From NCBI GenBank assembly GCA_032718475.1, contig JAUCBJ010000136.1, positions 1 to 54,783 of the forward strand: a stretch of 54,783 nucleotides of DNA, read 5' to 3'. The position numbers were made by a program, and so were the translations under genes. The notes beneath the pieces were generated by a model. It did not search any database and was not told where the DNA came from. It saw only the letters and a program-made list of their open reading frames with translations. Of this stretch, positions 8,685 through 51,785 are shown piece by piece. How positions within the stretch are numbered: the stretch's first letter is position 1; the number at the start of each line of letters is the position of its first letter. Source of the stretch: Nemertoderma westbladi (lineage: Eukaryota > Animalia > Xenacoelomorpha).

Positions 8685-9740
8685 CATTGCCGGATTAAGC
8701 CTAAGCCTCTGGTGGCCCTAAGGCACATTTTAGTAATTTCTAAAAATGGCCCGAAAATTGATATTTTTCCGCAAACCCTTTCAAAAGAAAATGCTGCTAA
8801 AAACAACTGAAATTGTTGCGAAGGAAATATAAAGTATTTTCATTGGATGACTGCTTGCAAATAAGTACTAAGTACTTTAATAATAAGTACTTTGCAAAAA
8901 TAGTTTTCATCAAGAATTGTAACATTACTAAACGGCATATTATGCTATTCCTATAAAACCTTTGCTATAAAAAGTGTAATGCTTTTGGTAGAATTTCAAG
9001 TTTTAATATTTAATATATTAATGGGACCATTACCCCAAATCTATTTGTTTTATTTATAAAGTTACTATTCTGAAACTTTAACACAATGATCTGTGATCTT
9101 TTATATACTATTAAATAGATAGCTTTCATAAACTCTTTGTTCGAAAAATATGGCACTTTTTGAGCAGGTCGGTTTTTTTCAAAAATTCTATAAATTGTGA
9201 GGCATTTATATGTAAATTAGCTCATGTTTAAAGATCTGTAATACCACCTGCATTAAAATTCTTGGCCCAAGACTTTGGTAAAATGGACCTAGATACTGTA
9301 TGTAGTCTATCTTCTATGAAAACCTTAAAACAATTTTATTAGCACAAAATTATTGTTTTTGAAAAATTTATGGGGGTTTTAGTATATCTGGGCTATATTT
9401 TGGGAATCAAATATTTTGTGATAGACAAAGTGTAGCAGTTACACAATCGGTCCTAGAATATCCAAATGGCCATGTTTTACAAAGCCAACGATAGTAGTCC
9501 TAAAGCAGCTGAACATTTTGGTATATTTTTGATGGCAATTGAGTAAAAAATAAAATAGTAGTAGGGAATTTAGTGATGAAAAAAGTCAATATTGACAAAC
9601 TGATAAAAAGTTTTTTTATACATAGAGAGTCATAAAATCAGCAATATATTATGTTGTTGAAAAGAGCTGTTTTGAGGTAAAAAAATAATTCAATGTTGAA
9701 AACCGGTATCACCTTATGAAAGTGTAAAAGCTTTTGTGGG
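8685..9740. mobile_element. Probable remnant of a non-autonomous DNA element truncating the RTE 3' end
   Basis: RTE homology stops abruptly after the GRP codons. The new sequence starts CATTGCCGGATTAAG...GGCCCTAAGGC, similar to common CAGGGCCGGATT-type MITE ends. No matching right end seen. Confidence 0.35.
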
Positions 9741-9826
9741 ATATTGTTGATATATCTTAATAATAATTTGATATTGATATTTATATTATATTGTATTGTA
9801 TTGTTGATATATCTTAATAATAATAA

Positions 9827-10507
9827 ATGGCTGACTTTAATTCAGGTCCATATAATTTAAACTTTCAAATGGGTACAAGTATGATAATTTCAGGGCCATC
9901 TGGTTCCGGAAAGTCAACCTTTGTAAGCAATTTAATTAAACACAAGAATGGTTGTTTCAACGAAGCCCCCTTGCGAGTATTGTATTGTTACGGGAGCAAT
10001 CCCCCGACTATTCCCGGTATTACTCACCTTTACAAAGGCTTGCCCGAAAATATAGATAGTTTAGTGAATAGTCGAGATTTATTAATTATAGATGATTTGT
10101 TAACAGAAACTGAGTCCAGTACAGCATTAACTGTATTGTTTACTAAGGTAGCTCATCATTCCAATATATTTATTTGTTTTATAACGCAAAACATGTTTTA
10201 CGGCGGGAAGCATAACCGTACAAGATCAATTAATAGCCATACTTTAGTATTAATGAAAAATCTGAGAGACAGTCTATCGGTTTTAAATTTCGCGAAGCAG
10301 ATGTTACCAGGACAGACCAAATTTTTAGTTGATTCCTATCAAGATGCGACAATTCAACCATTTTCACATTTCTTAATTGATTTACGACAGGAAACACCCG
10401 AACATTTAAGATTTAGATCGGATATATTTCGTAATCATAATTGTTACATTAAAAATTACATTGACTATAAACGTAGCGAAAATAATAATAATAATAATGA
10501 TAAATAA
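9827..10507 (+). CDS. Polinton genome-packaging ATPase (A32/FtsK-like)
   Basis: Walker A GPSGSGKS, Walker B LLIIDD, then HH.NI..FITQN, RTRSINS, 'LIDL...PEHLRFRS' as in Polinton ATPases. Confidence 0.92.
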   Translation: MADFNSGPYNLNFQMGTSMIISGPSGSGKSTFVSNLIKHKNGCFNEAPLRVLYCYGSNPPTIPGITHLYKGLPENIDSLVNSRDLLIIDDLLTETESSTALTVLFTKVAHHSNIFICFITQNMFYGGKHNRTRSINSHTLVLMKNLRDSLSVLNFAKQMLPGQTKFLVDSYQDATIQPFSHFLIDLRQETPEHLRFRSDIFRNHNCYIKNYIDYKRSENNNNNNDK

Positions 10508-10544
10508 TTAATATTTTGTAACAATTTTCAATAATGTTGCAACA

Positions 10545-10928
10545 ATGAATAGACTTGTGCAGAAATATCGTAACGAACTGGAATTTCTACGCAGCGCTAC
10601 CCCTCAACAAAGAACTTATTTTATTAACCATACCGCGAGTAACGAATTAATACGGCTCATTGTAAATACTGTATTAAATGTTCTAAAAGGTAACGTACAA
10701 TTAACCCCTCATTCATTTAGAAATATTCGCCGCTATAAGAAGGTATTGAAATCACTCAACCGTAAAACAAAAAATATATCAAGTTACAGAAAAAAGTTAA
10801 GCAATCAATCTGGAGGCATACTACCGTTTCTAATACCCTTACTTGGCATTGGTGCGAAACTCGCCGCGAGTGCCGGTGCCGCTGCCGCTGGAGCGGCTAT
10901 TGCGAAAAAAATTAACCGTGGACGGTAA
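10545..10928 (+). CDS. Basic virion protein with adenovirus pX/Mu-like C-terminus
   Basis: Basic N-terminal part, then QSGG-ILPFLIPLLG plus Ala-rich tail, resembling adenoviral pX 'MRGGILPLLIPLIAAA'. Confidence 0.65.
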   Translation: MNRLVQKYRNELEFLRSATPQQRTYFINHTASNELIRLIVNTVLNVLKGNVQLTPHSFRNIRRYKKVLKSLNRKTKNISSYRKKLSNQSGGILPFLIPLLGIGAKLAASAGAAAAGAAIAKKINRGR

Positions 10929-10930
10929 TA

Positions 10931-11101
10931 ATGGTTAAAACAGGAGTAACATTTAGAAAATTATATTTAGTATCGAGTAAACCGTTAGCTGTTGATTTAA
11001 AACCTCAAGATATACCTAGAGTAAATACTACAAAAAGAAAACCCTTCAAAACATCAACTTCAAAGAAAATAATTAAAAAATTTCAGTTGTTCTTACGGTG
11101 A
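10931..11101 (+). CDS. Small basic ORF (56 aa, MVKTGVTFRKLYLV...) between pX-like gene and integrase
   Basis: ATG 2 nt after the previous stop, fills the gap to the integrase. Translated by hand; below the track threshold. Confidence 0.4.
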   Translation: MVKTGVTFRKLYLVSSKPLAVDLKPQDIPRVNTTKRKPFKTSTSKKIIKKFQLFLR

Positions 11102-11152
11102 TGCCCTTTATAAGAGATTTGAATATACATATTACTTGCGGTTGTCGAAAAG

Positions 11153-12241
11153 ATGCCTCGCAAGATGAAACCGATTTTAAGCCGAAGCTTAGACAAAAAA
11201 CTGTTAAGAATTTATTTAGATCCATCATCCCCCGCGGGTTTTGCAAGTGTTGCAAAATTAGCAAAAGCTGCAAACATCAAAGCAGCCCAAGCCCAGAAAT
11301 GGTTGAGCGGGCAAAAGACATACACCCTTCACGCTCCACGTAGACATCATTATCCAACATCTAAAATATTTACGGGAGGCATAAAAGATATATATATGAT
11401 AGATTTGGTGGATATGCAGCAATATAAGTCGCAAAATAATAATTATAACTATATATTAACATGTATTGATGCCTTTAGCAGGCTTGCTTTTGGCTATGGT
11501 ATGAAAACAAAAAAGGGTGTTGAAATTATTAGTATATTGCAAAAAATATTCCAGAAAGGAAAACCAAACAGAATCGCCACGGATCAAGGTTCTGAGCTTC
11601 TAAATAAATCTGTAAGGAAATATTTAGATACGTTAGGTATACAGTATTACGTAATGTATTCTGTGAATAAGGCGGCTATTGTCGAGAGATTCAATAGAAC
11701 ATTAAAAACAAAGATGTTCAAAATTTTTACACAACAAGGAAATAATGTTTGGATTAAAATTTTACCTAAGCTTATCTCGGCTTATAATAGGTCATATCAT
11801 AGGACAATAAAAATGACACCTATTGAAGTTAATAAATTTAATGAAACTGAATTAATGAATAGATTATATGGGAAATATAGACAGATTAATCATAAGAAAA
11901 TAAAATTTAAAGTTGGAGATACAGTACGATTATCTATCGCTCGTACTGCTTTAGCTAAAGGCTATCGTGAACAATGGACACGTGAATTATTTATTATTCA
12001 TCGTGTCAGGTTGGATAGAGTACCTGCTGTAATGTTCGATATTAAGGACAGCGCTGGAGCTATAATAAAGGGCTCATTTTATTCTCACGAACTCCAAAAG
12101 GTCCACCCGAATAGTAATATTTATCTAGCAATTGATAAAAATATTGGCAAACTTAAAGAACGTGTTCGCAATGGGAAGAAAGAATATTTAGTCCGATTCA
12201 TCGGATCCAAGAAACAGTCGTGGGTACAGCATATTCAATAA
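11153..12241 (+). CDS. Polinton retroviral-like (rve) DDE integrase with C-terminal chromodomain-like remnant
   Basis: YTLH, IDLVDM, CIDAFSR, TDQGSE, KAAIVERFNRTLK, YN..YHRTIKMTP, FKVGD.VR, KGY...WT.E, YLVRF.G....SWV. Confidence 0.95.
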   Translation: MPRKMKPILSRSLDKKLLRIYLDPSSPAGFASVAKLAKAANIKAAQAQKWLSGQKTYTLHAPRRHHYPTSKIFTGGIKDIYMIDLVDMQQYKSQNNNYNYILTCIDAFSRLAFGYGMKTKKGVEIISILQKIFQKGKPNRIATDQGSELLNKSVRKYLDTLGIQYYVMYSVNKAAIVERFNRTLKTKMFKIFTQQGNNVWIKILPKLISAYNRSYHRTIKMTPIEVNKFNETELMNRLYGKYRQINHKKIKFKVGDTVRLSIARTALAKGYREQWTRELFIIHRVRLDRVPAVMFDIKDSAGAIIKGSFYSHELQKVHPNSNIYLAIDKNIGKLKERVRNGKKEYLVRFIGSKKQSWVQHIQ

Positions 12242-12493
12242 GCTTAGGTTTATACTGTATATTAATTCATTTTGGTCGCATATGACCGTAATTAATCAAT
12301 ATTAACTCGAATGATATTACTATATCTATAGTTCATCCGCTTTAAATAAAGCCAATAAAATATTGATCCCGCGCATATACTGTAGAAGATGCACGACAAT
12401 GAACGTGGTCACAGATGTCTATAATTTAACATTATACTGTATGTACAATGGAGTCAAGTAGAGAGAGAGAGAGCTTAAATAATAATAATAATA

Positions 12494-13366
12494 ATGGCCA
12501 CAGATACATATATCACTCTACTTTCAGATAGCTCATTAAACACTTACCCCAATAATAATCCTAGCGAGTTTACTGTTGATTTAGCCGAAGAATTATATAT
12601 TGGTCCAAACGCTAAAATTGGGCTTGCCGAGCTTCAATACCAAGCAACATACAGTAATATTACGCTGCAAACTCAAATCTCACTGTCAATCGGGGTAGAT
12701 GCAAAAGATGCCAAATTATATAGTTTATTTCCTGGTATGCATAACTCTATTCAAGTCATTATTGATAATATAAATAAACTGTTTAATTCTGAAGCGAAAT
12801 ATAGAGATTTCGAATTCATTTTTAATACAAATAATTCTAGAATTAAATTTAAATTTCCTAAAAAGTTGAAAAAAATACAATTAAGTCTACGTGGTGATTT
12901 AATACAAATTCTAGGCTTAAAACCGTTATTGGATCGGAATCATCCGGATATTCCGAATTGGGATATATACAGTACCACTACAGTAGATGAATTAAGCAAT
13001 ATAGAACAGCCGATATTAATTTTAAATTATAGCGGGCCAAAAATTTCGGAAATTGGCATTTTAGATTTTCCAGCTCCCACGAATATAACACGTAATAAAG
13101 ACACTATCTTTATATACACAGATATTATTAAGAACTCATTTGTTGGTGACGCTTTAGCTCCGCTCTTAAGAACCTGCCCTTTAACGCAATTAAATCGAAA
13201 ATATATTAATCATGAATACGAGAGCATTTGCTATTACCCGTTGTTGAATAAAAAACTAAAAACAATCTTAATTACTTTACGTGACGGGCAAGGCCAATTA
13301 ATTAACTTCAGTGGAGGTCGCACTGTTATAACACTTAAGTTAATACAGGGTGGTAGTGATGGATGA
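12494..13366 (+). CDS. Polinton minor capsid (penton-like) protein, copy 1
   Basis: N-terminal YITLLSDSSLNTYPNN.PSEF.V.L...IGLAE; C-terminal FIYTDII...VGD..APLLR...YYPL...I.I.LRD.QG..I.F..G...ITL. Confidence 0.85.
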   Translation: MATDTYITLLSDSSLNTYPNNNPSEFTVDLAEELYIGPNAKIGLAELQYQATYSNITLQTQISLSIGVDAKDAKLYSLFPGMHNSIQVIIDNINKLFNSEAKYRDFEFIFNTNNSRIKFKFPKKLKKIQLSLRGDLIQILGLKPLLDRNHPDIPNWDIYSTTTVDELSNIEQPILILNYSGPKISEIGILDFPAPTNITRNKDTIFIYTDIIKNSFVGDALAPLLRTCPLTQLNRKYINHEYESICYYPLLNKKLKTILITLRDGQGQLINFSGGRTVITLKLIQGGSDG

Positions 13367-14203
13367 ATTCTACGTAAGACTACCAAGTAACTCCTGTCCA
13401 ATTGATTTTCCCCGCAATAGCGCTAGTAATTATCAGATCAATTTCCATGGCGCCTTACCTATAAACCCAAACGAAAACTGGGTGGTAGGTATAAAAAGTA
13501 TATTTTACTTAGCAACGTTGCCGTCCATGTATAACAATGTAGAGAATGTTATTTTATTAAAAAAAGGAAAAAAAAAATTTGAGGATACACTTCCATCCGG
13601 TTTGTTCTACAGTATCAATGACATTATAGATTATTTGAACACGGGGGCGTTGAAAGATAAATTAAAATAGTTGAAAATACTCAGCAAAATAGGTTGCAAT
13701 TTATTTTAGGGAAAACTGTGCAAGAGTTATTTATAGGTCAACAATTAGCCTATTATTTTGGAATTACTGAAAATAATCTCGGTGCGAATTTAAATCCAAA
13801 TTTTAAAATTATTTTGAAGACGAAAAATAATATAAAGGGTTATTTAATAAAGGTTATCGGAAATGGAGAAAAAGCTTACCAGATGGTATTTTTATGCCCT
13901 CAACCACCCAATTCTATTCCAGAACCTAAGTCGAACATGTACGTGACTACTAATATAATTGAAAATCAATATATTAATGACTTTGGTTTAGCTTTACTTC
14001 GTCGTGTTGCGATACCTGATGACGTGAAATATGGTAGCGTAATTAATATAGAATTTGTCAAGGATACAATTCATTATATCCCTGTAAAAAAATCATATAA
14101 GATAACATACATTCATATTGAAATAACAGACAAAGAAGGAAAAGATTTGAATTTTGAATACGGGACAACATCTATTACATTACACTTTAAACGTATAAAT
14201 TAA
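13359..14203 (+). pseudogene. Polinton minor capsid paralog, copy 2, split by a one-base frameshift near 13660
   Basis: Same termini as copy 1 (FYVRLPSNS...FPRN; MYVTTNII...LLR...YIPV...I.I.ITD..G....F..G....TLHF). Track ORFs 13350-13670 and 13694-14203 join if one A is added in GATAAATTAAAATAG. Confidence 0.8.
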
Positions 14204-14204
14204 A

Positions 14205-14780
14205 ATGGATTCTGATTTATTTCAAAGATACAGTAAACCTCAATATGGTGGTTCAGACTCTAATCTTGCTGTTTTTAAAGGTGGTAGAAGTACCAGAGGT
14301 TCGACGCAAGTTCCTGTTTTTCGAGGTGGTTCATATATTGACCCTTACAGTCAACAAATTGGCACATTTGGTCCAAACTTAAAACAACGTCGTTTTCAGC
14401 GTTATCGTAGAGGTATGCGGGCAAATCAACACGGAGAAGGTATATTTACAGACGCTTTATCGACATTGAAAAAATTTGGTAAGCCATTAGCTAAAAAAGT
14501 TTTACAGAAAGCTTTACCATTTACCACAAAATTTATGAGACAATACGTAATACCAAAAGGTAAGCGGGTCTTACATCAGCAGGCTAATACGGTTATTAAT
14601 AAAGCATTAAATAAAATGAAACCGTCAACAAGGTCAGTTGTAGAAAAAGTTTATAGAGATTTAAAGCGACCCGCTAGACCAATGTCTATGAACATACATC
14701 ATCGATGTAGTAAAAAGAGAAATATAAAAGGCAAATTGAAACACTGCGAAAAAAGTATTTTTTATAATGTCAATTATTAA
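14205..14780 (+). CDS. Basic Gly-rich Polinton core/virion protein (pVII/pVI-like)
   Basis: Repeated xGG motifs (QYGG, FKGG, FRGG), QHGEG followed by amphipathic helix IFTDALSTLKKFGKPLAK, Arg/Lys-rich. Located just before the major capsid gene. Confidence 0.6.
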   Translation: MDSDLFQRYSKPQYGGSDSNLAVFKGGRSTRGSTQVPVFRGGSYIDPYSQQIGTFGPNLKQRRFQRYRRGMRANQHGEGIFTDALSTLKKFGKPLAKKVLQKALPFTTKFMRQYVIPKGKRVLHQQANTVINKALNKMKPSTRSVVEKVYRDLKRPARPMSMNIHHRCSKKRNIKGKLKHCEKSIFYNVNY

Positions 14781-16026
14781 GGAATTAGATTTATTTTCTA
14801 CACAGCCAATACAGACTGAATTTAAAGCAAAGCATTATGAAACAATTTACCCCGTATCTAATCTCAGAAGTGAATCTAGGGAGGTCACATTCCTTGTACC
14901 GAGATCCAATGAATTCTATACGAAACTACAAGATGCGTTATTAATTACAAAATGTACTGTACGATGGGATAGACGACTTGAAAACTCCCATATATATATG
15001 CTGAATTACCCCGCTGAAACTATGTGGAGTGATATTAAAATAGACCTTAATGAGAAGCAGGTTGAAAATAGCAATAACCATTATTTCTACAAGTCGTACT
15101 TATCCAATTTATTATTTACAACTTACGAGGATAAAAATGGGCTACTGGGTGCGGGTGGCTTTCATCAACCTTTATCTGAGCACGGAAATGAAATTGATCC
15201 CGGCGCGCATCCTATTGACGATGCCTTTAGTAAACAAATGCAATTTGTAAGTGGATTGACGATTGATTTTGATACTGAAACTAAAATAATACAACCCGGG
15301 TATGATTTAAGAATGCATTTTAGAAAAGTATCAAATTCGTTTATTTTTAAAATCACTCCAAACGCAAACGCGGTGACAAATCTTCGACTAGAATTAGATG
15401 AAATAAAGATTCTAATCCCTAGAATGGAGGTTAATCCTGTAATAGAAAGCAGTCACCTAAAAGGTTTAGAGAGTTACGATATTGAATATCAATTTCAAAA
15501 AAAGGAGGTGACAACATTTACTATTCCCGCTCAAACCACAAATTACACCCAAACAAACATATTTGATGGTAAAAAACCCAAATTAGTTATTATTGGCTTC
15601 ATAACAAATAACGCTTATTCGGGAGAATTAATTAGCAATCCCTTGAAATTTGAACATTTTAACCTTAGACGCGCGGAACTGATTGTAGACGGTCTTCCAG
15701 TAGGTGGTGTAATATACGAGCCTAATTTTACAGATGGAACATATATTTTTGAGTATACTCAATTAATGAAGAACATTAATACATATATTAACGGTTATGG
15801 AGGTAATAATATAGACCATGAAACCTACTTAGGTAATTGCCCCATCCTATCCTGGGACTTAACCGCCGACGGCTATGTTAGAGATCCGCAACCGTCGATA
15901 TATACTAATGGCCAATTAAAATTAAGATTTGCTGAACCGTTGGTTGAAACCATAAATGTAATCGTTTTTAATATTTATGATCAATCATTAAGTTTAAATA
16001 GCAGGAAAGAAATACATATCGATTAA
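14767..16026 (+). CDS. Polinton major capsid protein (double jelly-roll)
   Basis: 419 aa. ELDLFS..PIQT start, Y.YKSY...LL, P..VIIGF..N.AY.G....NP..F.HFNL, DLTAD, L.LRFAEPL...INVIV. Confidence 0.88.
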   Translation: MSIIKELDLFSTQPIQTEFKAKHYETIYPVSNLRSESREVTFLVPRSNEFYTKLQDALLITKCTVRWDRRLENSHIYMLNYPAETMWSDIKIDLNEKQVENSNNHYFYKSYLSNLLFTTYEDKNGLLGAGGFHQPLSEHGNEIDPGAHPIDDAFSKQMQFVSGLTIDFDTETKIIQPGYDLRMHFRKVSNSFIFKITPNANAVTNLRLELDEIKILIPRMEVNPVIESSHLKGLESYDIEYQFQKKEVTTFTIPAQTTNYTQTNIFDGKKPKLVIIGFITNNAYSGELISNPLKFEHFNLRRAELIVDGLPVGGVIYEPNFTDGTYIFEYTQLMKNINTYINGYGGNNIDHETYLGNCPILSWDLTADGYVRDPQPSIYTNGQLKLRFAEPLVETINVIVFNIYDQSLSLNSRKEIHID

Positions 16027-16028
16027 GT

Positions 16029-16481
16029 ATGTTATCTACAGAGGACCTTGATATGTTTCCAGTGGGTGGTCACTATTTGGGTGCGTTTCCAGCTAACAAA
16101 TTACCTAAATTAGATAATAATAAGCGAAGAGACTATGGCTTAATAGTAAATACCGATAAAGAGCATCTGCCTGGGATTCATTGGATCGCGATATATATAC
16201 GAGATAATGAGGCTGAATTATTTGACTCGTTTGGACCAAAATATCCAAACAGATGCATCGAAAAATGGCTTGAGAAAAATTCCGCAAGGTGGCGTACTAC
16301 TCGCAAACAATTTCAAGACCCTAGGAGGACCACATGCGGTCTGTACTGTCTGTATTATTTGGTAAATCGTATTCACACAATCTATCCAATGAGAGCGTTT
16401 ACAAATAATGTGGAAATAAATGAAATAATATTATATAAATGGCTTGTTAATTATTATAAAATAAACCAACAAGCGTTGTAA
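16029..16481 (+). CDS. Adenain-like cysteine (maturation) protease
   Basis: IVNTD....PGIHWIA, LFDSFG, Q......CGLYC (His-Asp-Gln-Cys catalytic set). Confidence 0.92.
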   Translation: MLSTEDLDMFPVGGHYLGAFPANKLPKLDNNKRRDYGLIVNTDKEHLPGIHWIAIYIRDNEAELFDSFGPKYPNRCIEKWLEKNSARWRTTRKQFQDPRRTTCGLYCLYYLVNRIHTIYPMRAFTNNVEINEIILYKWLVNYYKINQQAL

Positions 16482-16516
16482 TTAATTATTTAACTTGCTT
16501 TTGTTTATCAGATAAA

Positions 16517-17116
16517 ATGGATAATATTATTTTTGTTGATTTTCAATATTATAAGATAGACAATAAAGAGTATCCGGTAGTATTTAAAGAATTTGCTATA
16601 TTTGATTCTAATTACACCAAAACTAATATAAAGACGTTTTTAATTAAAGGCCCGTCTAATATTAAGTTATCAGCTTTAGATGCAGCCCACGTAAACAATT
16701 TACGGGATATGACTTCTCACTTGCCCTGGGACTACGGGGACATTTCTCAAGATGACTTTAAAAAATATATAAAGAGACATTTAAAATATAAAAAAAACAT
16801 TCATGTATTTGGGTTGCTGAAGCAGGCAATATTAGTTTCCCAACTCGATGTTCTCGCGCCAAATTCGGTGGAGAGATTGGGAATATATAAGCAATATCAC
16901 GAATATTTAACCCCCTGTCGCTTTCACGATCAATTTATTCCACTGGAAAATAAATGTGCGTTCCACTTAAACACAAAGGATAACTGTCTGCGGTATTGCT
17001 CAGCAAAACGCGTTGGGGGGTATGAGATGCTACATTTTTTCATGAGAAAGCGTTTAACTGCGACTGATGATGATGATAAACAGAAAGAAATAACTGTGGT
17101 GGAAGATGTACTGTAG
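16517..17116 (+). CDS. DnaQ/DEDD-fold-like protein with Glu-Cys-His-Cys pattern (Maelstrom-like)
   Basis: FVDFQ...FKEFAIF...F.IK.P...TSHLPWDYG...C.FH...C. The ORF itself is well supported; the fold call is by eye. Confidence 0.5.
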   Translation: MDNIIFVDFQYYKIDNKEYPVVFKEFAIFDSNYTKTNIKTFLIKGPSNIKLSALDAAHVNNLRDMTSHLPWDYGDISQDDFKKYIKRHLKYKKNIHVFGLLKQAILVSQLDVLAPNSVERLGIYKQYHEYLTPCRFHDQFIPLENKCAFHLNTKDNCLRYCSAKRVGGYEMLHFFMRKRLTATDDDDKQKEITVVEDVL

Positions 17117-17485
17117 GTTTACTCTAAGCATGTAATGTGATGGGATATAATATAATTTTATTTTGGTGATGATCTTGATGTTAATATACAAATATAATAA
17201 AATATAATTTTTTTACAACAAGTTCTCTAAAAAGAGTCAATTGCGGTAGGTTAACCATGCACATTTAACAATATGACGTAGACGTAACATGTACAGTAAG
17301 TATTCTCGATATCATTCTAATATAGATATACTGGTATTGCGAAACATCCTATACATCGCAAACTAATAACACATACAGTAGTTGACTAGTAATATTAGTC
17401 AGAAATGCAACATAAACTGTATAGGATGTAGTGTTAACCTGTTGGTACCAGTACTGATAAATTCAATAATTTATTATAAGCCTAA

Positions 17486-18290
17486 CCACAACTGTCATCC
17501 GCTTTATCAGTACTGGTAGTGTTTTACTCTTCCAACACTGTAGTCACAGTCTACTGGTATCAGTACAGCAGTAATCTGAAGCAATAGCATACTGCTGTCA
17601 TGATCTGGATTACACGCAGGGGTCTCTCATATAGGGATTAGATCACCTATCCAAACAATACAGTACTGCAGTACTGTCGTTGTTCTTGATGTAACAACAT
17701 AATCAGATAGAGCATACTGATTTCCTTTGATTAGCATTGTACCGCAGTACTAGTACTACAGTATTAATGTAACAGTACCCGCAGTAACAAACTAGGCCAA
17801 TGTATACAATATCGTGAGCCAGTTACAATCAGATGTGTACGCAGTCAGCCACACTGCGGGGGATGTGGTCAACCTCGCAGCTCCTATCCACAACTGTCAT
17901 CCATTTTATCAGTACAGCAGTAATCTGATGTAATAGCATTTGTTTTTTTTCACCTATAAGGATACTGCTGTCTACCCGAACCTTGATTAGCATACTGCTG
18001 TCATAACCTAGAAGGGACGCGTGGCTCTCACATATAGGGATTAGATCACCTACCCAAACAATACAGTACTGCAGTACTGTCGCTGTTCTTGATGTAACAG
18101 CATTGTCAGATAGAGCATGCTGATTTCTTTTGATTAGCATTGTACTGCAGTACGGTACCGGTACCACAGTATTAATGTAACAGTACCCGCAGTAACAAAC
18201 TGAGTCAATGTATACAATATCGTGAGCCAGTTACAATCGGATGTGTGCGCAGTCAGCCACACTGCTGGGAAACGGTCCACCTCGCAGCCG
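17486..18290 (+). repeat. ~400-bp diverged tandem duplication between the two Polinton gene blocks
   Basis: CCACAACTGTCATCC at 17486 and 17888; shared GGGATTAGATCACCTA and GTAACAGTACCCGCAGTAACAAACT blocks at ~400-410 bp offset. Confidence 0.85.
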
Positions 18291-18456
18291 TCTAGCCACC
18301 CTCGCAGTCAGCCTCGCGGCAGGCAGTCAGCCTCGCAGTCAGCCTCGCGGCATGCAGTCAGCCTCGCAGCCAGCCTCGCGGCACGCAGTCAACCTCGCGG
18401 CACGCAGTCAGCCTCGCGGCACGCAGCCAGCCACGCAGCTAGGCACACAGTCAGCC
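18290..18456 (+). repeat. Short GC-rich tandem repeat (GCAGTCAGCCTCGCGGCAC-like)
   Basis: About 8-10 variable units of 13-19 bp. Confidence 0.8.
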
Positions 18457-18548
18457 CGTGAGAGTCATGCTTATTCAAACGAGGTTAGTTTTCCCTAACT
18501 ACCGATTGATTGATTGATTGAAAAATAATAATGTTTAATTTTCACCTT

Positions 18549-19094
18549 CTAATCACCAACACCTAAAGTCACAACACCAAACATTAATAAATAATTAACA
18601 AGTTTACTAAATATAGGGTAATAAATGTGAAATTTGCTAGGTGAACACATTAAAGTACATTTACCGGTATGAAAGCAGCAAATGACTACGGTATTATTTA
18701 TTCTTATTTTGCAATTATTAAAAATTTCAGGTTCATATATAACTTAAAGTTGCACATTATCAAAGATAACATAAAACCCGGTATTGTTTATCAATAACCT
18801 ATAGACTACAGACTTAATACTAAAAATATAAGTACATAAATTAACAGATTTTAAAATCAAATTAATACTAGTTTTATCAAATATATGCTTTTTTACTTTT
18901 TGGAAATTATACTTACTACCTAATAATGTAATACGACCATTTTTAAATATTAATAATGTGGCACCAAATATCTTATATATAAACTGATTTGGTTTGAGTA
19001 TGTGTTTACCAGATAATTGATTTTTTAATTCTTTCAAATTAATCGCTGACACTTGCTGGCAACTTACATTCTTATTGACTATCTGATAGTTCAT
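18549..19094 (-). pseudogene. TATA-binding-protein (TBP)-like gene of the Polinton, 181 codons with one in-frame TAA (18744-18746)
   Basis: Repeat 1: IVN..VSC....AINL ... TLLIFKNGRITLLGSK. Reading past the stop in the same frame gives VIYEPEIFNNCKIRINNTVVICCFHTGKCTLM...YYPIF to TAG at 18549, matching TBP repeat 2 (YEPELF...IFVSGK...IYPIL). Confidence 0.75.
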
Positions 19095-22000
19095 TGTTTG
19101 GTTCCCGATAAATTGGTATATTGTTTTTTTTCATGGGTTTTTCGACCTTTGTTTGATAGTGACCCCAGGGAAGCGAATGATTTTTATTAACCCAATAAAG
19201 TTTATCATCAAATGCGCTGAGAGCAAACTTATCTCGTGCTATAGTATACACTTTGTGTAATTTACTCTGAAATTGATGTGTTTCTTTTGAAATTTCTTCG
19301 TTATCGTAATATGCCCTCAAATAATCTTTGTGACAAATATTTTTATCCACGACAGCTCTTGTTATTCCTTTCGCCCGTCGTATATTTGTTTCATTGAATT
19401 CCAAAATTGAATATAACTTTGGTCTTAAAAATACCGCTTGTTTAATTTCACATGAGGCTAGTTCGTCTTTACAGTAATAGAGCCTGGATTTATTTTTATC
19501 GCTGTAGAGAGGGTGATCCTTGGGGTAATTGGATGTATCTAAAATATTATTTTTAATTAAGGCTTTTAAGAAATTACTCTGTGATGTATTATAGTAACAA
19601 CCTATTAAAGAGTCCGTGTCTGATGCTACAATTTCAATTCGGCAGTTTAATTCTTTCTCAATAGGTAGCAATTTATCGTAATACAGCTGATACATATCCA
19701 ATTTAGCCAAGTCCAAGACAGTACTACCTACATAGACTGGTTTATCGAGAGTTACAGAGTCTTTCACTAATAAATGTCCCGATAAGGAATCGTTATAAAT
19801 CATGAAATTTTCATGATTTATTCGTTTGACTAATTGGTCACATTTTTCTTTACTATTTGCGATACGAAAGTTGCATCGATCCCGTATATTCTCTATAGTT
19901 TTACCAAATAAAGAATTGTTCAGCAATTTCGCGACAGCTGTTTCAATATAACTTTTTGCTAGTCGCCTTTGATTAATATTAAAATCTATATAGGGTTTAA
20001 ATACAAAGTCTTGATGGAAAGAATATAATTTATGGAGCTTAGTAACAATTAAACCTTGTTTTATATAAAATTTTAACAGTTTTAAATTTACATGATAGAA
20101 TTCTTTATCGAATTGTGTCAACATAAGTTTCGGTGCACACATCTTATACTTGCTATTAGTGCCTCTTTGTTTACAAACATTGTTAAATTGTTCCCTCATA
20201 TAAGGTGAAAGCATTGTCTCATTTATACTTAAATGTTCTGGAGCTAAGGGTAGTTCTAATGTACGATCGTGAATATCTTTGGGATATTTCAAATCGCAAA
20301 TTAAGAAAAACCCAATATCACCTTCAGTATCAAGATTTGTTAAATATTTTATCAGTTCTTCTGGAGCAGCATTCTCTAAATATGTAACATTGACTTGTTC
20401 AAAACCTGAAACAGGTAGCTTTTTACTTAAATTTCCCGAATACAAGGAATTAAAATCTATATTGAAAATATGACACTCTTCCTTGCTTGGATCATAATTA
20501 TCAGTATCTGGTATATTTGATTCTATGTAATGCTTTCGACAGAATGAAACCCCTCCTCTAATAGATGCTTCAAAATCTCTATATGTTTGGTAATCTTTTA
20601 TTAATGTTAACTTACATTTATTGTATTTCAGGGCGCAATCATAAGTGAAAGCTGCGATACTGCAATAATAAACTACTTCTAATTCGTAGTTTTGTCTACA
20701 CACTCTCCTAAAGTTCTCAAATATATCAGCGAGGAGACAAACATCGAGTTTTAAGTATGCTAAAAGATAATCCTTGAGATTCACACAGTCAAACTGACTC
20801 CATGATGCGTTGGCAAAACTATATTCCTCGGGTGTACAGGTATTTTGTGTTAATTTACTATAAAATTTGTCTATTGATGGTAATTTCAAATCATTGAATT
20901 TATTTAAATCTGTCAGATACTCGTAGGGAAATATACCTTTTCGTTTAATTGTTGCATTATTTAAATTTGGATAAAAATATTTCATTTGCTGTTCAGTAAT
21001 TGGTAGAACTGATGTTATATCCTCGCTGTCTATATCCTTTGTTGAACAATCAACTAAAGTACTTAGGGAAAAGGATAAAAATTGATATGTGTCTAAGACA
21101 CGTAGCTCGATCTTAGTTTTTTCATCTTTCACTGGTATATGCATGCTTAGTGAAATATACCTTTCAGAATTTTTAGGGATCACCTTTATATCCCAATCGG
21201 AATATCGGTTGTTGGTAAAACCAACTTGCAAAAGAAAATGCAAATCGTAGAGATTGCAGTTGTGTGCAGCAAGTATATACATGTGTCGTTTCAACGATAA
21301 AGAGCGGTTACATGCGTTACAAGCGGCCGCTATATAGTTACCAGTAATATGTGAGTGATGTTTGTTTTTCTCAGACTTATCCTTAAATAAAACATTGCAA
21401 TAAAAGCAAGTTTTAGCTTTCCAAAAACTTAACTTATCTACATCATTAAGTATCATTCTCTCTCTCGTGTGGGTTTCTGACCACTTATATAATTGGGTGA
21501 TGTCATTATATACAGAGTCTAAAAAGTCTTGAATATAGTTGTTGTCGATTGTTTTTGTAAAGGTCTTCAAATAAAATTTTGGTGGATTGATTAATTCGGC
21601 ACTAGGAACAATTAAATAACTTACAGCGCATGGAATATGATTCTGAATAAATTTACTGTTGGTGGCTGGCTCCAAAATAGATTCTATGTCAAAATATATT
21701 ACAAACAATGCTGGTAATGTTCTGTCTAAATTTCTAAAGCTAATGTGAGTTCTTTTTTCAGACGGTAGCTTCTCAACTTGACTTTTTCCTCGATAACAAG
21801 CAAGACGGTGACGTTCTAGAACATCATTGGTGTAGAAAGGCGCCAAACACCGTTCACAATATTTCCTACCACGAGTATGAAGAGCTCTTGTATTCATCAA
21901 ACGATTCAAGTTAGTTATGCAAACATAATGTGATTGTTTACTCGTATTCTTATGTTTTACAAGTAATATATTCAATAACTCTTTATCTGGAGTGATTTTA

Positions 22001-23098
22001 CTAAATGGTGCCTGTCTTAATATAGATACTCAATTGTTGTCGTAGAGTAATAAATTAATTATATATGCTGAATTCTGTTTTTCAAAAAGTTTAATTGCAA
22101 GCGGCCATTCTGTTGGATAATCTTTGTTGCCGTTGTCAAAAATGAAATGACTCATATAATTTTTGTACTGTGAAGTACGGTTTTTGTTTATCTTCACTTT
22201 GCTACTAAATTTTGTAGCTATAATTGCCCATTTAAAACAATCATTATCAGCCGTTTGTATATTTATAACACATTGTTTATACGCTAGAGCCTTAGGTAAC
22301 TCCATGTAACCGTGTGTGTCCCTTATATTCCAGTGACCTACACTTGGATTCAGCTACTTTAATTTCAACCCTTAATAAAGATTTAACACGCCACCCTGAG
22401 CCACGAGTGTTAAACATGGCTATTTTTTGCATTAATTTTTCTAATACATACTCAAACCATGTGTCAAAACTTTCATGTGAATCTACGGTATTAACTGCAC
22501 CACCTGAAGAACTAAAATAGAAAGCTTCTTCTTGATCACCCTCTGAAAAATGTGATCGATACATGAGTATATTCACACCTAGCCAGGGTCTAAGTACATT
22601 CATTTCGCTAAGTTTTCCTAATAATAAAGTTTGGATGTGAGGTAGAATTTTAATTAATGATGAATGAATATCAGGAAAATCTTCATCATTCGGAAGATTG
22701 TAAACATAGATTTCTAAACGGTTATCGTGTGCGGCCCGTTCAATGTTAAAAATTGATGAACCTTGACCAGATTTCAGTCTTTTTCTAGATACGATAGTAT
22801 TGTTTTGGTTCCGTTGTGGTGGTGGTCTAACATGATAATAACGTTGGTGACAGTCGTGACGTAAGTAATTCTCATATAAATACTCTTTATTACAAGTAGG
22901 GCATGTTTTTTCATACACGCAAAACTTCATTTCTTTACATCCCGTAGTTGATTCATGTCGTTTACATATTTCTTCACGTGAACATTTCACTCGACAATGA
23001 AAACAATTGTATTCTTGAAAATGAGATTTCACGTGTGTTAAATAATTTCGTTTAGAAATTTGAAGAGGACAAAATGGACATTTCAATTGTTTATCCAT
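19072..23098 (-). pseudogene. Protein-primed family B DNA polymerase (N-terminal Zn fingers, OTU-like segment, EndoVII-like insert), split by a frameshift (~22315) and an in-frame TGA (22030-22032)
   Basis: Exo motifs FDIES, HN...YD, YLKLDV; pol motifs DFNSLY, KLLNNSLFGK, SDTDS, KDE, RPKLY, KGI; N-terminal GSGW and DCFKWAI...HYV. ORFs 22030-22305 and 19072-21975 share a frame; 22292-23098 is shifted at a (CA)n run. Confidence 0.93.
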
Positions 23099-23720
23099 CT
23101 CTTTATTATCCTAAAAACAATTTAAAATTAATATGAATATTGTTATATATATAATCAAAAAAATTCATAAGCTACTCAATACAAATAAAATATAATATCT
23201 AAACTTTAATTAATTTAATATTTTCAGAATGAGCTCGATTGAATCAGTTGAGCTCTTTATATATATATATTTCAAGTTTCTACTTATACCAACCAATCAT
23301 AAATAACAGTTACATTGGAAACTAATATCATAAATAAAGTTGCTTTTACAACTGAATTCTTTATAATAAAATCAAGTCTAAACCAAGATGTGCATAATGC
23401 ATTTTTAATTTTCATTGATAAAGTAGGTTTTACATGCTAATGTTTTATTATGGTGGTGTAAACTCATGCATTTATATGCGAATGTTTTATACCTAATCCC
23501 GTGCTCACATTAAATATAAACTATCACCAATATTTACTCAATAAAGTCACCTTTACATGCAAATACTTTATAATAATCACGCTTTGTGATAAAAAGTTAC
23601 CTTTACAAGTCAGTGTGAAACTGAAAAAGAAAAGTCTCTAGTTAATAATAAATCAATCTGATACTGTTTTTATATGTTCCTTATTGTAATCTGCTACCTC
23701 TTCACTTGCTTTTGTAACTT

Positions 23721-24695
23721 TTATTTTCTTTGTAGGTATAGAATCATTGTTGGGAATGGAAGATGTTTGAGATGTAGATCTGCGCTTTCTATCACTCGAT
23801 GTCTCTTCGATGTATGCTTTGGATTAAATGTGGATGAAACTACTTCTGGAAATGACTTATTAACCTTAAACTTCCAAGTTGGTTGATATAGAATCGCGAA
23901 ACCGTCTGCTATATCAGTTGATGAAACCTTTAACATCATATCGTGGAGAAACTCTATATGTGGTATGTCTTTATCGTAATGTAACTGTAAATATTTGCTT
24001 TCCTTGTCTGTAATAATTACTTTTTTTTCTTGTACATTTATTTTTACTTTAAGTCGGTCAGATAAAGCTTTATCGTCCGTATCTAGCTCTGAAAAGACAC
24101 CTTCGTTACTAATTTCATAATTCCATTCATACCACAATGAATTTACTTCCGATGCTGTTAAGTTAAACCCATTATAATACCTAAGACCAATAGCGTCAGA
24201 ATATCTAGCTGAAATCTCCCATAGTCCCATATAAGTCGTTCCTTTATATTTGCTTACAAAACCAACAAAAGATGGGTTGGTTAAATTAACAACAGAACAC
24301 TGATTTATTATTTCGAGTGGTGGTGATAACAATTCTAATATTTCTGTCTTACTCTGAAGCAATAAATTAATGAGTGATTTGTTTAGAATTTGACATTTGC
24401 CTTGCTTCTGAATATATACGTTTTCAGTAATAACACAGGTGGAAATATTTAACTTTCCTCTTGTAAATTCTATATTAGGATAAATATTACCTCTTGAAAC
24501 TGGTGATTCCTTTTGTCGGTTGATTAATATTTCTAAGACGTCTAGAAGGTAGAGTGTATCCTGGTAAGAGAAGCATGTTGTTACATTGCTATCGCTTGAG
24601 AGTAATATAAAGTACTTGCCATAAACAATACTACAGGTATATTTATTACATGTAAATTTCCAAGTATTGCTTGAAGTTTTTTTAAATAAATCCAT
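23721..24695 (-). CDS. Polinton accessory protein with a PC4/Sub1-like ssDNA-binding segment
   Basis: 324-aa ORF. Central FVSKYKGTTYMGLWE...NGFNLTASEVNSL resembles PC4 'VSVRDFKGKVLIDIRE...KGISLNPEQWSQL'. Confidence 0.5.
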   Translation of the reverse strand: MDLFKKTSSNTWKFTCNKYTCSIVYGKYFILLSSDSNVTTCFSYQDTLYLLDVLEILINRQKESPVSRGNIYPNIEFTRGKLNISTCVITENVYIQKQGKCQILNKSLINLLLQSKTEILELLSPPLEIINQCSVVNLTNPSFVGFVSKYKGTTYMGLWEISARYSDAIGLRYYNGFNLTASEVNSLWYEWNYEISNEGVFSELDTDDKALSDRLKVKINVQEKKVIITDKESKYLQLHYDKDIPHIEFLHDMMLKVSSTDIADGFAILYQPTWKFKVNKSFPEVVSSTFNPKHTSKRHRVIESADLHLKHLPFPTMILYLQRK

Positions 24696-25199
24696 AATTA
24701 GAATGAAAACTATTTTGAAAAATAAAAACTAAATAAATGATTATTAGAATGTAAAACTTCTGTTTATATGGTTGCTTTAATACAACAGAGTGACTTACAG
24801 TGAGGAATATAGTAGCTTCGTGTAACAGATGCAACGTGTACAGCTAAATTTATTACATTAGCGTGAGTTAGAGAGTGAAATAGCAGTAACGTGTAACAGA
24901 TGCAACGTGATCAATGCTAGCCCTGTCATTCTAACTTATATTCAACTTAGTTGATCGACCAGTTACATCGATAAAAGAAATCGATTATTATTAATAGTCG
25001 AATTAATGTATTCTACGCTATAGTAATTATGTTAAGGAACTAGAAGCTATTTATAAACATCTGCTACCAGTGATGAAGATGAAGAATTCAATGACTATGG
25101 TATAACTCAGATATTTATCGCCTTTTTCTCTCGAGGTTGGATGGAAGAGTGATTGGTGAGTTGTGAGGAGTTATATCGGTCCCGGGTTCGAACCCTGTT

Positions 25200-25632
25200 G
25201 AATATTTTGTTATCTGAAAAATTGCAAAATTAAATTTAGTTACTAGTGAAAAATAGCGATTTGAAAAATAGTAGACGTTACCTGTAGACACTCCTAGCAT
25301 CTGTAAAATAAAGGTTGGTAAAAAATTGCGATTTGAAAAATAATAGAAGTTACCTGATGCTAAGTGTAGACACCCGAACACCTGTAAAATAAAGGTTGGT
25401 GATTGGATGCAGTACTAGCGTTGGGTGACTAATAACGCCTCTAGCGGAATAAGCGGGAACTTGAGAAGTTACCATGGTTACGGATGAAATGCTGACATCT
25501 GATTGGTTGAAATAATAACGACCACTGCAAAAGGTTGAAATGGTGGCTTCTGATTGGATGCAGTACTAGAAATGGATGGTAATGATGGACTACGGGTGAC
25601 CTTGATGCCCAGGACATGTAATATATACTACT
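25200..25632. repeat. Putative Polinton right terminal region with short direct repeats
   Basis: Duplicated GCGATTTGAAAAATA, CTGTAAAATAAAGGTTGGT and GATTGGATGCAGTACTAG; ends in ACTACT. Confidence 0.55.
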
Positions 25633-26045: not shown

Positions 26046-26132
26046 ATTTCAACTCAGTTTAAAATATAACTTCTCCTCATCTGACATACAGTTTATAAAG
26101 TTAATGCAGTTGCAGTTGCACTCATGGGAGGC

Positions 26133-26968
26133 CGGTAAATTGACCAAATTTCTAAGTGGTTTTCTCTAGAAACCGGTAAATTGACCAAATTTCTAAGTGG
26201 TTTTCTCTAGAAACCGGTAAATTGACCAAATTTCTAAGTGGTTTTCTCTAGGAACCGGTAAATTGACCAAATTTCTAAGTGGTTTTCTCTAGAAACCGGT
26301 AAATTGACCAAATTTCAAAGTGGTTTTCTCTAGAAACCGGTAAATTGACCAAATTTCTAAGTGGTTTTCTCTAGAAACCGGTAAATTGACCAAATTTCTA
26401 AGTGGTTTTCTCTAGGAACCTGTAAATTGACCAAATTTCTAAGTGGTTTTCTCTAAAAACCGGTAAATTGACCAAATTTCAAAGTGGTTTTCTCTAGAAA
26501 CCGGTAAATTGACCAAATTTCTAAGTGGTTTTCTCTAGAAACTGGTAAATTGACCAAATTTCTAAGTGGTTTTCTCTAGAAACCGGTAAATTGACCAAAT
26601 TTCTAAGTGGTTTTCTCTAGAAACCGGTAAATTGACCAAATTTCTAAGTGGTTTTCTCTAGAAACCGGTAAATTGACCAAATTTCTAAGTGGTTTTCTCT
26701 AGGAACCGGTAAATTGACCAAATTTCAAAGTGGTTTTCTCTAGAAACCGGTAAATTGACCAAATTTCTAAGTGGTTTTCTCTAGAAACCGGTAAATTGAC
26801 CAAATTTCTAAGTGGTTTTCTCTAGGAACCGGTAAATTGACCAAATTTCTAAGTGGTTTTCTCTAGAAACCGGTAAATTGACCAAATTTCAAAGTGGTTT
26901 TCTCTAGAAACCGGTAAATTGACCAAATTTCTAAGTGGTTTTCTCTAGGAACCGGTAAATTGACCAAA
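26133..26968 (+). repeat. 41-bp tandem satellite, ~20 copies (AACCGGTAAATTGACCAAATTTCTAAGTGGTTTTCTCTAGA)
   Basis: Near-identical units at 41-bp spacing (e.g. 26171, 26212). Confidence 0.97.
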
Positions 26969-28233: not shown

Positions 28234-29664
28234 TTACCGCAACGGTGAGGAATTCCCTATCTGATTGTGTTGACTCGGCGTCAAGGAAACGCCGCCGATA
28301 TCTGCGTCCCGCGGCGGCAGTTTGACGTGCAACTGGATGCGAAGCAACGCGGCTCGCAACGTCAACGCCTTGCAACGTCGCTCGTAGTCGCGGCAGATCT
28401 CGAGCCCGCGTTCGAACGTAGCGGTACGCGCGTGCGTGTCCTTAGCGTAGACTATCTTATTGTGCGAGTCGATCCTCGCCGCGATCTTCCCGTCCAGTAT
28501 CAAGGCCATCACCTCGTCCTCCAACGATCCCACGTCCGTGTTGAACGCCGTCGCCATCGCGTTCATATCCGCGGACACGTAAGGACTGAAGTACTGACAC
28601 AACGCTTTCTTACGTATCTGGGAGTAAAGAACGCCAACGTGTTCCGCAAGGTATATGTCCACGAGGAACACGTTCCGAAGTCCATCGAGCAGCCGTAGAC
28701 ACTGGGCGTAGGACGAGGCGTAGAAGGCGGAGACCGCGTCCCGTAGTTGGGGCTCCAAGTCAAGGAACTGCTTGAAGGAGGCGCTACCGAGCACCAGTTT
28801 GTGTAGCTCCGAGCGCTCGAACGTGGCCAATGCGGTGAGTCCGCCGTAAACGGCGACGTTCCCAGGGGATAGAACCTCGGGGAAGTCGCAATAATCAAAG
28901 GAAGCAGAAACAAAGGATTTAGCCGCCGCTTTGTACTTCTTCAGACCTAATTCTGCGATCCCAGCGGCACATTTCAGTTTGGTTTCGGTAGCAGCGTCAG
29001 CTACTGCGTCCTTGCGTTCCCGGTCTGCGTAATCAGCTGTCGCCACAGCTTTGTTTACAAAACTGTTGACATGGGACCAGTTCCTCAGATAGATGCTCAC
29101 CTTGATGACATTCAGGTTCATACTGATGTGGTGTTTGGTTGAGGTGCAGTAGTCCCTGGAGCGACTGTAGCACTTGAGCGCGTTGCAGAGATCCCCGGTG
29201 TCGAGGTAGTGATCGCCAAGGTCGTCATGACCGCGCCGGATACTCTCCTTTATTGAGTTGGCCTTGTAGTTCTTGAGGTCGGTGTCGAGTTTCTCGAGTT
29301 TCAGCGAGGATTTCTTTGCGGTGTTTTCAATCCAAGTCGTGTCTAACTGCGGTGGTGACGGGAGGTTTGCGTCGGATGAGTGGGAATTGATGACGTCGGT
29401 GAGTTTGGCGTGGAGACTCTGGTAGTTCTCAACGTTGTAGGTTGTCTGAGAGTATATCAATGCGAGTCGGAGCGCATCCAGCTTAAGGGAGCCACAATGG
29501 TCGGCGAGATATTCCAGTCGCTTCACCTTCGCATGTCCAATGTACTGGGAGGCATAGCTGTCCAGGTCCAGGGTGGAAGAGTCAACAACCAACTCCTGGG
29601 GTAAACCGGCCACATTTTCATTGTCCTCCGGCAAATCAACCTGCATGGGTTCTATGCTAGCCAT
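28234..29664 (-). CDS. GPS1: COP9 signalosome subunit 1 (CSN1/GPS1), single exon
   Basis: EPMQVD start, LEKLDTDLKNYKANSIKESIRRGHDDLGDHYLD.GDL.NALKCYSR.RDYCT, YGGL.ALATF.R.EL, QYFSPYVSADM..MA.AFNT, LILDG.I.ARIDSHNKI (RPN7 + PCI domains). Uninterrupted 476 aa; AATAAA on the minus strand near 27940. Confidence 0.96.
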   Translation of the reverse strand: MASIEPMQVDLPEDNENVAGLPQELVVDSSTLDLDSYASQYIGHAKVKRLEYLADHCGSLKLDALRLALIYSQTTYNVENYQSLHAKLTDVINSHSSDANLPSPPQLDTTWIENTAKKSSLKLEKLDTDLKNYKANSIKESIRRGHDDLGDHYLDTGDLCNALKCYSRSRDYCTSTKHHISMNLNVIKVSIYLRNWSHVNSFVNKAVATADYADRERKDAVADAATETKLKCAAGIAELGLKKYKAAAKSFVSASFDYCDFPEVLSPGNVAVYGGLTALATFERSELHKLVLGSASFKQFLDLEPQLRDAVSAFYASSYAQCLRLLDGLRNVFLVDIYLAEHVGVLYSQIRKKALCQYFSPYVSADMNAMATAFNTDVGSLEDEVMALILDGKIAARIDSHNKIVYAKDTHARTATFERGLEICRDYERRCKALTLRAALLRIQLHVKLPPRDADIGGVSLTPSQHNQIGNSSPLR

Positions 29665-51000: not shown

Positions 51001-51785
51001 ATGGTTCTGCTCTGTGACGAACTACCGGTTCAATCGTTCTGCTCTGTGACGAACTACCGGTTCCATGGTTCCGCTCTGTGACGAACTACCGGTTCAATGG
51101 TTCTGCTCTGTGACGAACTACCGGTTCAATGGTTCTGCTCTGTGACGAACTACCGGTTCCATGGTACCGCTCTGTGACGAACTACCTGTTCAATGGTTCC
51201 GCTCTGTGACGAACTACCGGTCCCATGGTTCCGCTCTGTGACGAACTACCGGTTCAATGGTTCTGCTCTGTGACGAACTACCGGTTCAATGGTTCTGCTC
51301 TGTGACGAACTACCGGTTCAATGGTTCTGCTCTGTGACGAACTACCGGTTCAATTGTTCCGCCCTGTGACGAACTACCGGTTCAATGGTTCCGCTCTTTG
51401 ACGAACTACCGGTTCAATGGTTCTGCTCTGTGACGAACTACCGGTTCAATGGTTCTGCTATGTGACGAACTACCGGTTCAATGGTTCCGCTCTGTGACGA
51501 ACTACCGGTTCCATGGTTCCGCTCTGTGACGAACTACCGGTTCAATGGTTCCGCTATATGACGAACTACCGGTTCAATGGTTCCGCTCTGTGACGAACTA
51601 CCGGTTCAATGGTTCCGCTCTGTGACGAACTACCGGTTCAATGGTTCTGCTATGTGACGAACTACTGGTTCCATGGTTCCGCTCTGTGACGAAATACCGG
51701 TTCAATGGTTCTGCTCTGTGACGAACTACCTGTTCAATGGTTCTGCTTTGTGTCGAACTACCGGTTCAATAATTCCGCCCTGTGA
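48022..51785 (+). repeat. 32-bp tandem satellite, ~117 copies (ACCGGTTCAATGGTTCCGCTCTGTGACGAACT)
   Basis: Continuous 32-bp period over ~3.76 kb with point variants and occasional CTACCG insertions. Confidence 0.98.

Follow-up and report, generated by a model that had tools for sequence, protein, structure and literature searches.

A TATA-binding-protein gene with a Maelstrom-like and a possible PC4-fold companion in a decayed Polinton of Nemertoderma westbladi

Contig JAUCBJ010000136.1 of the Nemertoderma westbladi assembly GCA_032718475.1, analyzed over 54,783 nt (hereafter the window), contains an AT-rich block of approximately 15.4 kb that is a Polinton/adintovirus, and this element carries its own gene for a TATA-binding protein (TBP). 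Two further accessory genes lie in the same element, one for a Maelstrom-like (MAEL-like) protein and one for a 324-aa protein that may have a PC4 fold. An earlier note on this DNA had described a virus-like element of about 16 kb in which the three genes might form a control module. The element and the positions and order of the three open reading frames (ORFs) are borne out, with MAEL-like at 16517-17116 on the + strand, TBP-like from 19094 on the - strand, and PC4-like at 23721-24695 on the - strand; the module is weighed below. The element has the protein-primed DNA polymerase (polB, broken here) and the retroviral-type integrase that define Polintons/adintoviruses, along with an ATPase (a weak match), a protease (above the cut-off), and capsid genes recognized by homology and synteny with related loci. 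Its right-pointing arm runs from the ATPase through a small basic protein, the integrase, the probable minor and major capsid proteins, and the adenain protease to the 199-aa MAEL-like ORF. Its left-pointing arm runs from the 324-aa PC4-like ORF through polB to the TBP-like gene, and the arms, both with a GC fraction of 0.31-0.33, converge on a 1.3-kb repeat-rich spacer. The features are as follows.

9557..24945, no strand: Polinton/adintovirus element, approximate extent
9827..10507, + strand: packaging ATPase (A32/FtsK type); Pfam Pox_A32 at E 1e-3, under the cut-off; relatives in 13 loci
10545..10928, + strand: small basic core-like protein; weak Adeno_PX match; relatives in 5 loci
11153..12241, + strand: retroviral-type integrase; Pfam rve at E 1.7e-10
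12494-13366 and 13359-14203, + strand: two probable minor-capsid genes, recognized from homology to related loci and shared synteny; the second is split in two here
14767..16026, + strand: probable major capsid protein, 419 aa; relatives in 10 loci, adjoining the protease; no Pfam match
16029..16481, + strand: adenain-type cysteine protease; Pfam Peptidase_C5 above the cut-off
16517..17116, + strand: MAEL-like protein, 199 aa; likely DEDD fold, E-C-H-C zinc site, disabled active site
17200..18500, no strand: non-coding spacer between the convergent arms; a tandem duplication of about 403 bp with 18-bp palindromes, then GC-rich 12/19/31-bp repeats
18549..19094, - strand: two-lobed TBP-like gene of 181 codons, interrupted here by a stop at codon 117
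19072..23098, - strand: protein-primed polB; zinc fingers at the N-terminus, weak match to an Endonuclease VII/HNH insert; in three pieces here
23721..24695, - strand: 324-aa ORF, possibly tandem PC4/Pur-fold repeats (predicted fold, unproven)

We take the genes at 12494..14203 to encode minor capsid proteins from their position, and the gene at 14767..16026 to encode the major capsid protein from its size and its position.

Several observations identify the TBP gene. First, read through from 19094 to 18549 with X at the in-frame stop (codon 117, 18744-18746), its 181 codons match Pfam TBP with 39.4 bits in two stretches (cut-off 22.9, E 5.6e-10), placing two TBP lobes over the curated PF00352 cut-off. 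The part before the stop, at first read as the whole gene (116 aa), reaches 23.7 bits by itself, barely over the cut-off; the family call was thus right and the size was not. An intron between the lobes was considered and dropped, since both share one frame. Second, a profile built from the proteins of the window and of two related loci, L029 and L088, matches solved TBPs at E 3e-11. A homolog search with the 116-aa part was empty, and a PF00352 search that reached 5 of 45 records gave 0 matches. Third, the DNA-contact Phe and Asn residues and the C-lobe Glu pair that contacts TFIIB are present (F38, F50, F125, F141, N7, E121, and E123), and N7, F50, E121, P122, E123, F125, and F141 are invariant in all three proteins. 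All four intercalation positions of the window protein are aromatic (F38, F50, F125, and F141), F38 varies in L029 and L088, and the second-lobe Asn is replaced in the window (S95 by alignment). These contact and intercalation positions are our assignment, made partly after yeast TBP. Finally, a Pfam scan of the ORFs of the element gave no TFIIB match; because both C-lobe Glu residues are kept and no TFIIB match is found, the protein probably uses host TFIIB or Brf.

The variation among copies bears directly on whether this gene is functional in the family. In contigs of public DNA runs that cover codon 117, other copies differ within the stop at all depth in runs X1, X4, and X5 and at most depth in X3, so the premature stop is atypical of the family. 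Pooled over runs, 21 of 39 listed differences in the TBP frame are synonymous against an expected 19% (p 1.6e-6; 40 of 66 differences were listed, and the stop site was left out), and 3' of the stop this holds for 10 of the 14 listed. Furthermore, diverged contigs match the window over the TBP core alone (18643-19042), without gaps. By this pattern of substitutions the TBP frame is under purifying selection among copies, and at the level of sequence a real, selected, element-borne TBP gene is confirmed.

The copy in the window is decayed. A frameshift near 22330 and an in-frame stop at 22030 break its polB, which has 1216 homologs at E<=1e-3, into three pieces; the TBP gene is broken, and one probable minor-capsid gene is split. 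An indel near 13664, in the minor-capsid region, distinguishes copies. The whole block is deeply covered by contigs of the public DNA runs in many variants, from which we conclude that the element family has many copies, with the qualification that summed contig depth is not a copy-number measure. In runs X1 and X3 the summed depth over the virion arm (9800-17000) is about 2-3 times that over the polB arm (18200-24800), which may reflect partial elements, although such depths are an unsafe basis for ranking.

Related loci were gathered by polB alignment, giving 106 polB loci (26 viral and the best 80 of 544 metagenome matches). The window proteins and profiles for TBP, MAEL, and PC4 served as queries against all 7570 ORFs of at least 40 aa in these loci. 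The Pfam scan covered 449 of 494 accessory candidates and one added ORF, the other 45, mostly polB fragments and shadow ORFs, having been removed by eye. TBP was found in two of the 106 loci, L029 and L088, and a MAEL-like gene in one, L029, where it accompanies TBP. For most loci the absence of a gene is weak evidence, because just 32 of the 106 are at least 10 kb long. In the window, L029, and L088 the TBP gene lies downstream of polB in the same orientation, and in the polB tree (FastTree, 86 rows) all three fall in one 14-row clade with SH-like support of 100. TBP is thus restricted to one polB clade in this sample. Scans of viral contigs with major capsid protein (MCP), polB, integrase, TBP, and MAEL queries returned nothing, and the PC4 query refound L014 alone. 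An ORF family of about 150 aa with no Pfam match recurs at L029:13037-13486, L029:17674-18138, and L089:4609-5133 (beside the MCP gene) and is possibly a DNA-binding accessory of the clade.

The MAEL-like ORF has no Pfam match at E<=10, PF13017 included, and both a homolog search and a sequence search of solved structures were empty. A putative zinc site is formed by E25, C147, H150, and C161, D8 is kept, and Q10 and R165 occupy catalytic positions. In sequence order (D8, Q10, E25, C147, H150, C161, and R165) these seven residues parallel Bombyx D122, N124, E137, C290, H293, C302, and R306, the marks of an RNA-binding domain that is inactive and binds zinc, and the C-x2-H...C spacing with Arg at C+4 mirrors C290/H293/C302/R306 (PMC4408791). 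By motif spacing alone, then, the ORF has both the E-C-H-C zinc motif and the loss of catalytic residues. It shares with metazoan Maelstrom, as described in PMC4408791 and PMC2628886, the retained first Asp, the replaced second catalytic Glu and last Asp, the E-C-H-C-like ligands, and the Arg at Cys+4; unlike that protein it is 199 aa long with no HMG box and no PF13017 match, and the two extra His of the EHHCHC pattern were not located. In the Atlas it sits with unnamed arthropod clusters (0.95-0.96), and one Maelstrom cluster appears at 0.88 (rank 22), a recognition below the usual bar and a lead only. A predicted model with a score of 40 in the predicted local distance difference test (pLDDT) has DEDD exonucleases as its top Foldseek rows (QIP, Orn, RNase AS, and RNase T; best E 5e-3, not significant) and RNase H-like folds in VIA (Z<=6.5). 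The MAEL-like identity is moderately supported by the hints of a DEDD-type fold, the zinc motif, and the dead active site. The relative in L029 is shorter and likewise has no second catalytic Glu; it was noticed by eye, and a DEDD/ECHC motif scan across the related loci gave 0 ORFs. One contig of run X1 skips 16474-17073, almost exactly the MAEL-like ORF (28 bases on the short side), which hints at copies without it.

The 324-aa ORF fares less well. The earlier note had rated TBP the best of its three family calls and MAEL the weakest; TBP keeps its place, and the order that we find is TBP, then MAEL, then PC4, which fails all sequence tests. The PC4 call drew no support from Pfam or the Atlas, from the comparison of profiles with profiles, or from a Polinton-PC4 hidden Markov model with shuffles; a sequence search of solved structures was empty, and a test for internal repeats was negative. 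One distant homolog was found (1 representative match, E 4e-4, 30% identity over residues 95-190). A single-sequence model (pLDDT 32) has repeated strand-helix units, for which Foldseek returned nothing significant. Among 50 structural rows six are PC4/Pur-family chains (MoSub1 twice, Pur-alpha three times, and T5 PC4; Z 3.7-4.7, residues 1-72), and these rank below the top rows, which are KhtT, and inside the noise range of the tool. The ORF would share with the PC4/Sub1/Pur-alpha family its predicted strand-strand-strand-strand-helix units; unlike that family it has no significant sequence or structure match and, if the units are real, up to four of them per chain. It is terminal and points inward, like the PC4 genes of loci L014 and L058. 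The frame of its final 30 or so codons differs among copies. We put the chance of a PC4 fold at about even or slightly better.

We cautiously favor the hypothesis that the element is a Polinton of high copy number that acquired three accessory genes separately, namely a promoter-binding TBP, a nuclease-dead MAEL-like RNA binder, and possibly a PC4-fold coat for single-stranded DNA. Under this hypothesis the left-pointing arm (PC4-like, polB, and TBP) would be early, and TBP, whose gene overlaps the polB stop, would be an early product that then activates the right-pointing virion arm, probably by binding element promoters and recruiting host TFIIB and RNA polymerase II (Pol II) to the virion genes. 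The MAEL-like protein is likely late, because its gene is the last of the virion arm and, in L029, lies behind the late box described below. As a predicted nuclease-dead RNA binder it might conceivably shield element RNA from silencing of the PIWI-interacting RNA (piRNA) type. The 324-aa protein, if it has the PC4 fold, could cover single-stranded DNA as it is replicated; the analogy is to phage T5, whose PC4 homolog is a replication factor (PMC7549692). The earlier suggestion that the element could switch on its virion block with its own factors therefore survives for TBP, a real and selected gene of one polB clade with a private box in a relative, and finds no support for a joint role of PC4 and MAEL.

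Several results weigh against this hypothesis. Only 2 of the 106 loci have TBP, the remaining 11 rows of the 14-row clade are fragments that lack it, and a label-clustering shuffle was not significant (47/500). TATAA occurs in 7 of 9 upstream windows of the element against 4.5 expected (p 0.08 with composition-matched shuffles; an apparent enrichment at p 2e-3 against the whole-element background was discarded, as it is gone under those shuffles), and de novo search in the window found no private promoter motif (family-wise p 0.2-0.57). Solved Maelstrom is in neither structural list, the MAEL fold comes from the pLDDT-40 model, and the MAEL-like proteins of the window and L029 match each other at E 0.016. 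The PC4 call failed every sequence test and is unproven.

A broader reading, which we consider possible but tentative, is that the whole clade has a minimal early-to-late switch, in which a bare two-lobed TBP expressed with polB would bring host TFIIB to boxes particular to each lineage, with CATAAAC in L029 and L089 and a near-canonical form in the window, and a late nuclease-dead Maelstrom mimic would counter piRNA silencing. The evidence for a late switch comes from relatives only, because the window shows no private motif; the AT-rich tracts 5' of its genes held no motif beyond base composition. In L029, CATAAAC lies upstream of 6 of 12 genes, including those for the ATPase, the integrase, and the MAEL-like protein and not that for TBP (family-wise p 0.007), with 12 sites on the + strand and 0 on the - strand, and it also precedes 2 of 4 genes in the clade-mate L089. 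Two loci in which TBP was not found have canonical boxes (TATAAA before 5 of 7 genes in L102; TATA in L014). The distribution of CATAAAC is consistent with a late box that depends on TBP in some members of the clade, not demonstrably in the window element. The L029 box would be analogous to the TATT late promoters of beta- and gamma-herpesviruses, which have no polymerase of their own and use a TBP-fold protein (KSHV ORF24 and its kin) for late genes. ORF24, a large protein, makes direct contact with Pol II within a six-member complex, whereas the Polinton protein is nothing but a TBP core of roughly 180 aa in which the TFIIB-contact Glu are retained; a herpes-like non-canonical box is absent in the window and present in L029 and L089.

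We think it unlikely that the TBP makes no specificity switch at all and is instead a repressor-insensitive or dominant TBP on ordinary TATA boxes, or one that serves RNA polymerase III through Brf, with a general boost to element transcription or a diversion of host TFIIB as the result. The four aromatic residues of the window protein, the variability of F38 in L029 and L088, and the absence of a private box in the window fit this alternative, as do a tRNA-Cys gene (L029:10156-10227) and a tRNA-Met gene (L033:6343-6414) downstream of polB, the two cases among 48 scanned loci, both in the TBP-bearing clade. In addition, the N-lobes of viral TBPs have been proposed to evade Mot1 (PMC7221094). 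Against it stand the strand-specific, non-canonical box of L029, which recurs in L089, and the window itself, which has no tRNA gene. ARAGORN and Rfam gave no tRNA or Rfam match in the window, including 25130-25210, where a sequence resembling a B box, perhaps accompanied by an A box, lies some 490 bases upstream of the PC4-like gene; it may be the head of a short interspersed nuclear element or a decayed polymerase III unit at the end of the Polinton. The TBP-like proteins encoded by large dsDNA viruses (Ravarani et al. 2020, PMC7221094) likewise have a two-lobed core with conserved DNA-contact Phe; in most of them the C.L3.2/C.L3.4 Glu are lost and the partner is a viral TFIIB, whereas here the Glu pair is kept in all three proteins and no TFIIB match is found.

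The module proposed in the earlier note, with TBP and PC4 as an element-encoded promoter-opening pair and MAEL coupled to it for silencing control, is more doubtful still. The three genes do lie in one element, L029 combines TBP with a MAEL-like gene, and L088 has between polB and TBP two unassigned ORFs that look PC4-like by eye; nevertheless, neither ORF passed when tested against the PC4 profile (20 and 5 of 200 shuffles did as well), and none of the 106 loci, many of them fragmentary, has all three genes. Matches to PC4, all below the Pfam cut-off, occur in three loci (L014, L058 twice, and L085), and the PC4 bearers fall outside the TBP-bearing clade. L014 and L058 are complete elements bounded by terminal inverted repeats (TIRs; checked in 10 loci) that carry PC4 without TBP or MAEL. 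Moreover, L029 gave no PC4 match in the 19,005 of its 23,047 bases that were covered, and apart from polB-TBP the gene order differs among the window, L029, and L088. The claim of a single TBP-PC4-MAEL module is thus not supported. Least probable is that the 324-aa ORF is unrelated to PC4, the 199-aa ORF encodes some generic, inactive DEDD protein that serves in structure or packaging, and regulation is the work of TBP alone: the missing sequence-level support for PC4, KhtT at the head of the structural rows, the absent internal repeat signal, and the absent Pfam Maelstrom match agree with it, but the six PC4/Pur-family chains over residues 1-72, the terminal, inward-pointing place shared with the L014 and L058 PC4 genes, and the ECHC-plus-Arg pattern with the Atlas row in favor of MAEL speak against it.

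The earlier note had also called the system possibly undescribed for Polintons, which fits TBP at most. MAEL and MOSUB are already printed labels for adintoviruses: Supplementary Fig. S2 of Starrett et al. 2021 (PMC8502044) has MAEL four times and MOSUB once, both in one parsed row on one occasion. The alpha-type adintoviruses of that paper have the same polB, integrase, packaging ATPase, protease, and capsid block as the element described here; in the available text, TBP appears just in a figure legend of the section on non-animal MELD viruses, where its function is not discussed. The word Polinton is absent from the main text of PMC7221094. No paper dealing with TBP in animal Polintons came up in our literature search, and a term search of further Polinton literature met no mention of TBP, PC4, or MAEL. 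A three-gene module would add little beyond TBP, given that two of its three gene types already have labels on maps of adintoviruses and show no link to TBP. How Polintons time their virion genes without an RNA polymerase of their own bears on whether they are real viruses, and a small clade-tied TBP, a matching box in relatives, and conserved contacts to host TFIIB make the question testable with one protein and one DNA motif. The Maelstrom mimic, if true, would be a counter to piRNA silencing on the side of the transposon.

Unlike described Polintons/adintoviruses, this copy has no TIR and no target-site duplication detected in the window, and its ends may be truncated. An AGTAGT at 9557 has no right-end partner that we found. 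The left boundary is hinted at by the depth of other copies, which climbs at about 9.8 kb, and the right by one contig from another run that spans 23998-24945. A 26-bp exact direct repeat (9742-9767 and 9799-9824) lies just 5' of the ATPase start. In the spacer (17440-18450) the repeat copy number differs between copies, as seen from contig joints, and the region is possibly an origin or terminator. Its single-stranded DNA fold has z -5.4 against 20 shuffles, a value inflated by the duplication and palindromes. A circular permutation with the ends in the 17.2-18.5-kb spacer was considered, and no long hairpin or joint favors it. The host contig around the element is animal-like DNA with remnants of long interspersed nuclear elements, minisatellites, and an intronless gene for COP9 signalosome subunit 1 (28234-29664; Pfam RPN7, PCI, and CSN1_C) 3.3 kb from the element. 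Between them lies a 41-bp tandem array (26132-26968; 20 copies, 97% matches). Approximately 48000-51500 is taken up by a long minisatellite with a 32-bp unit.

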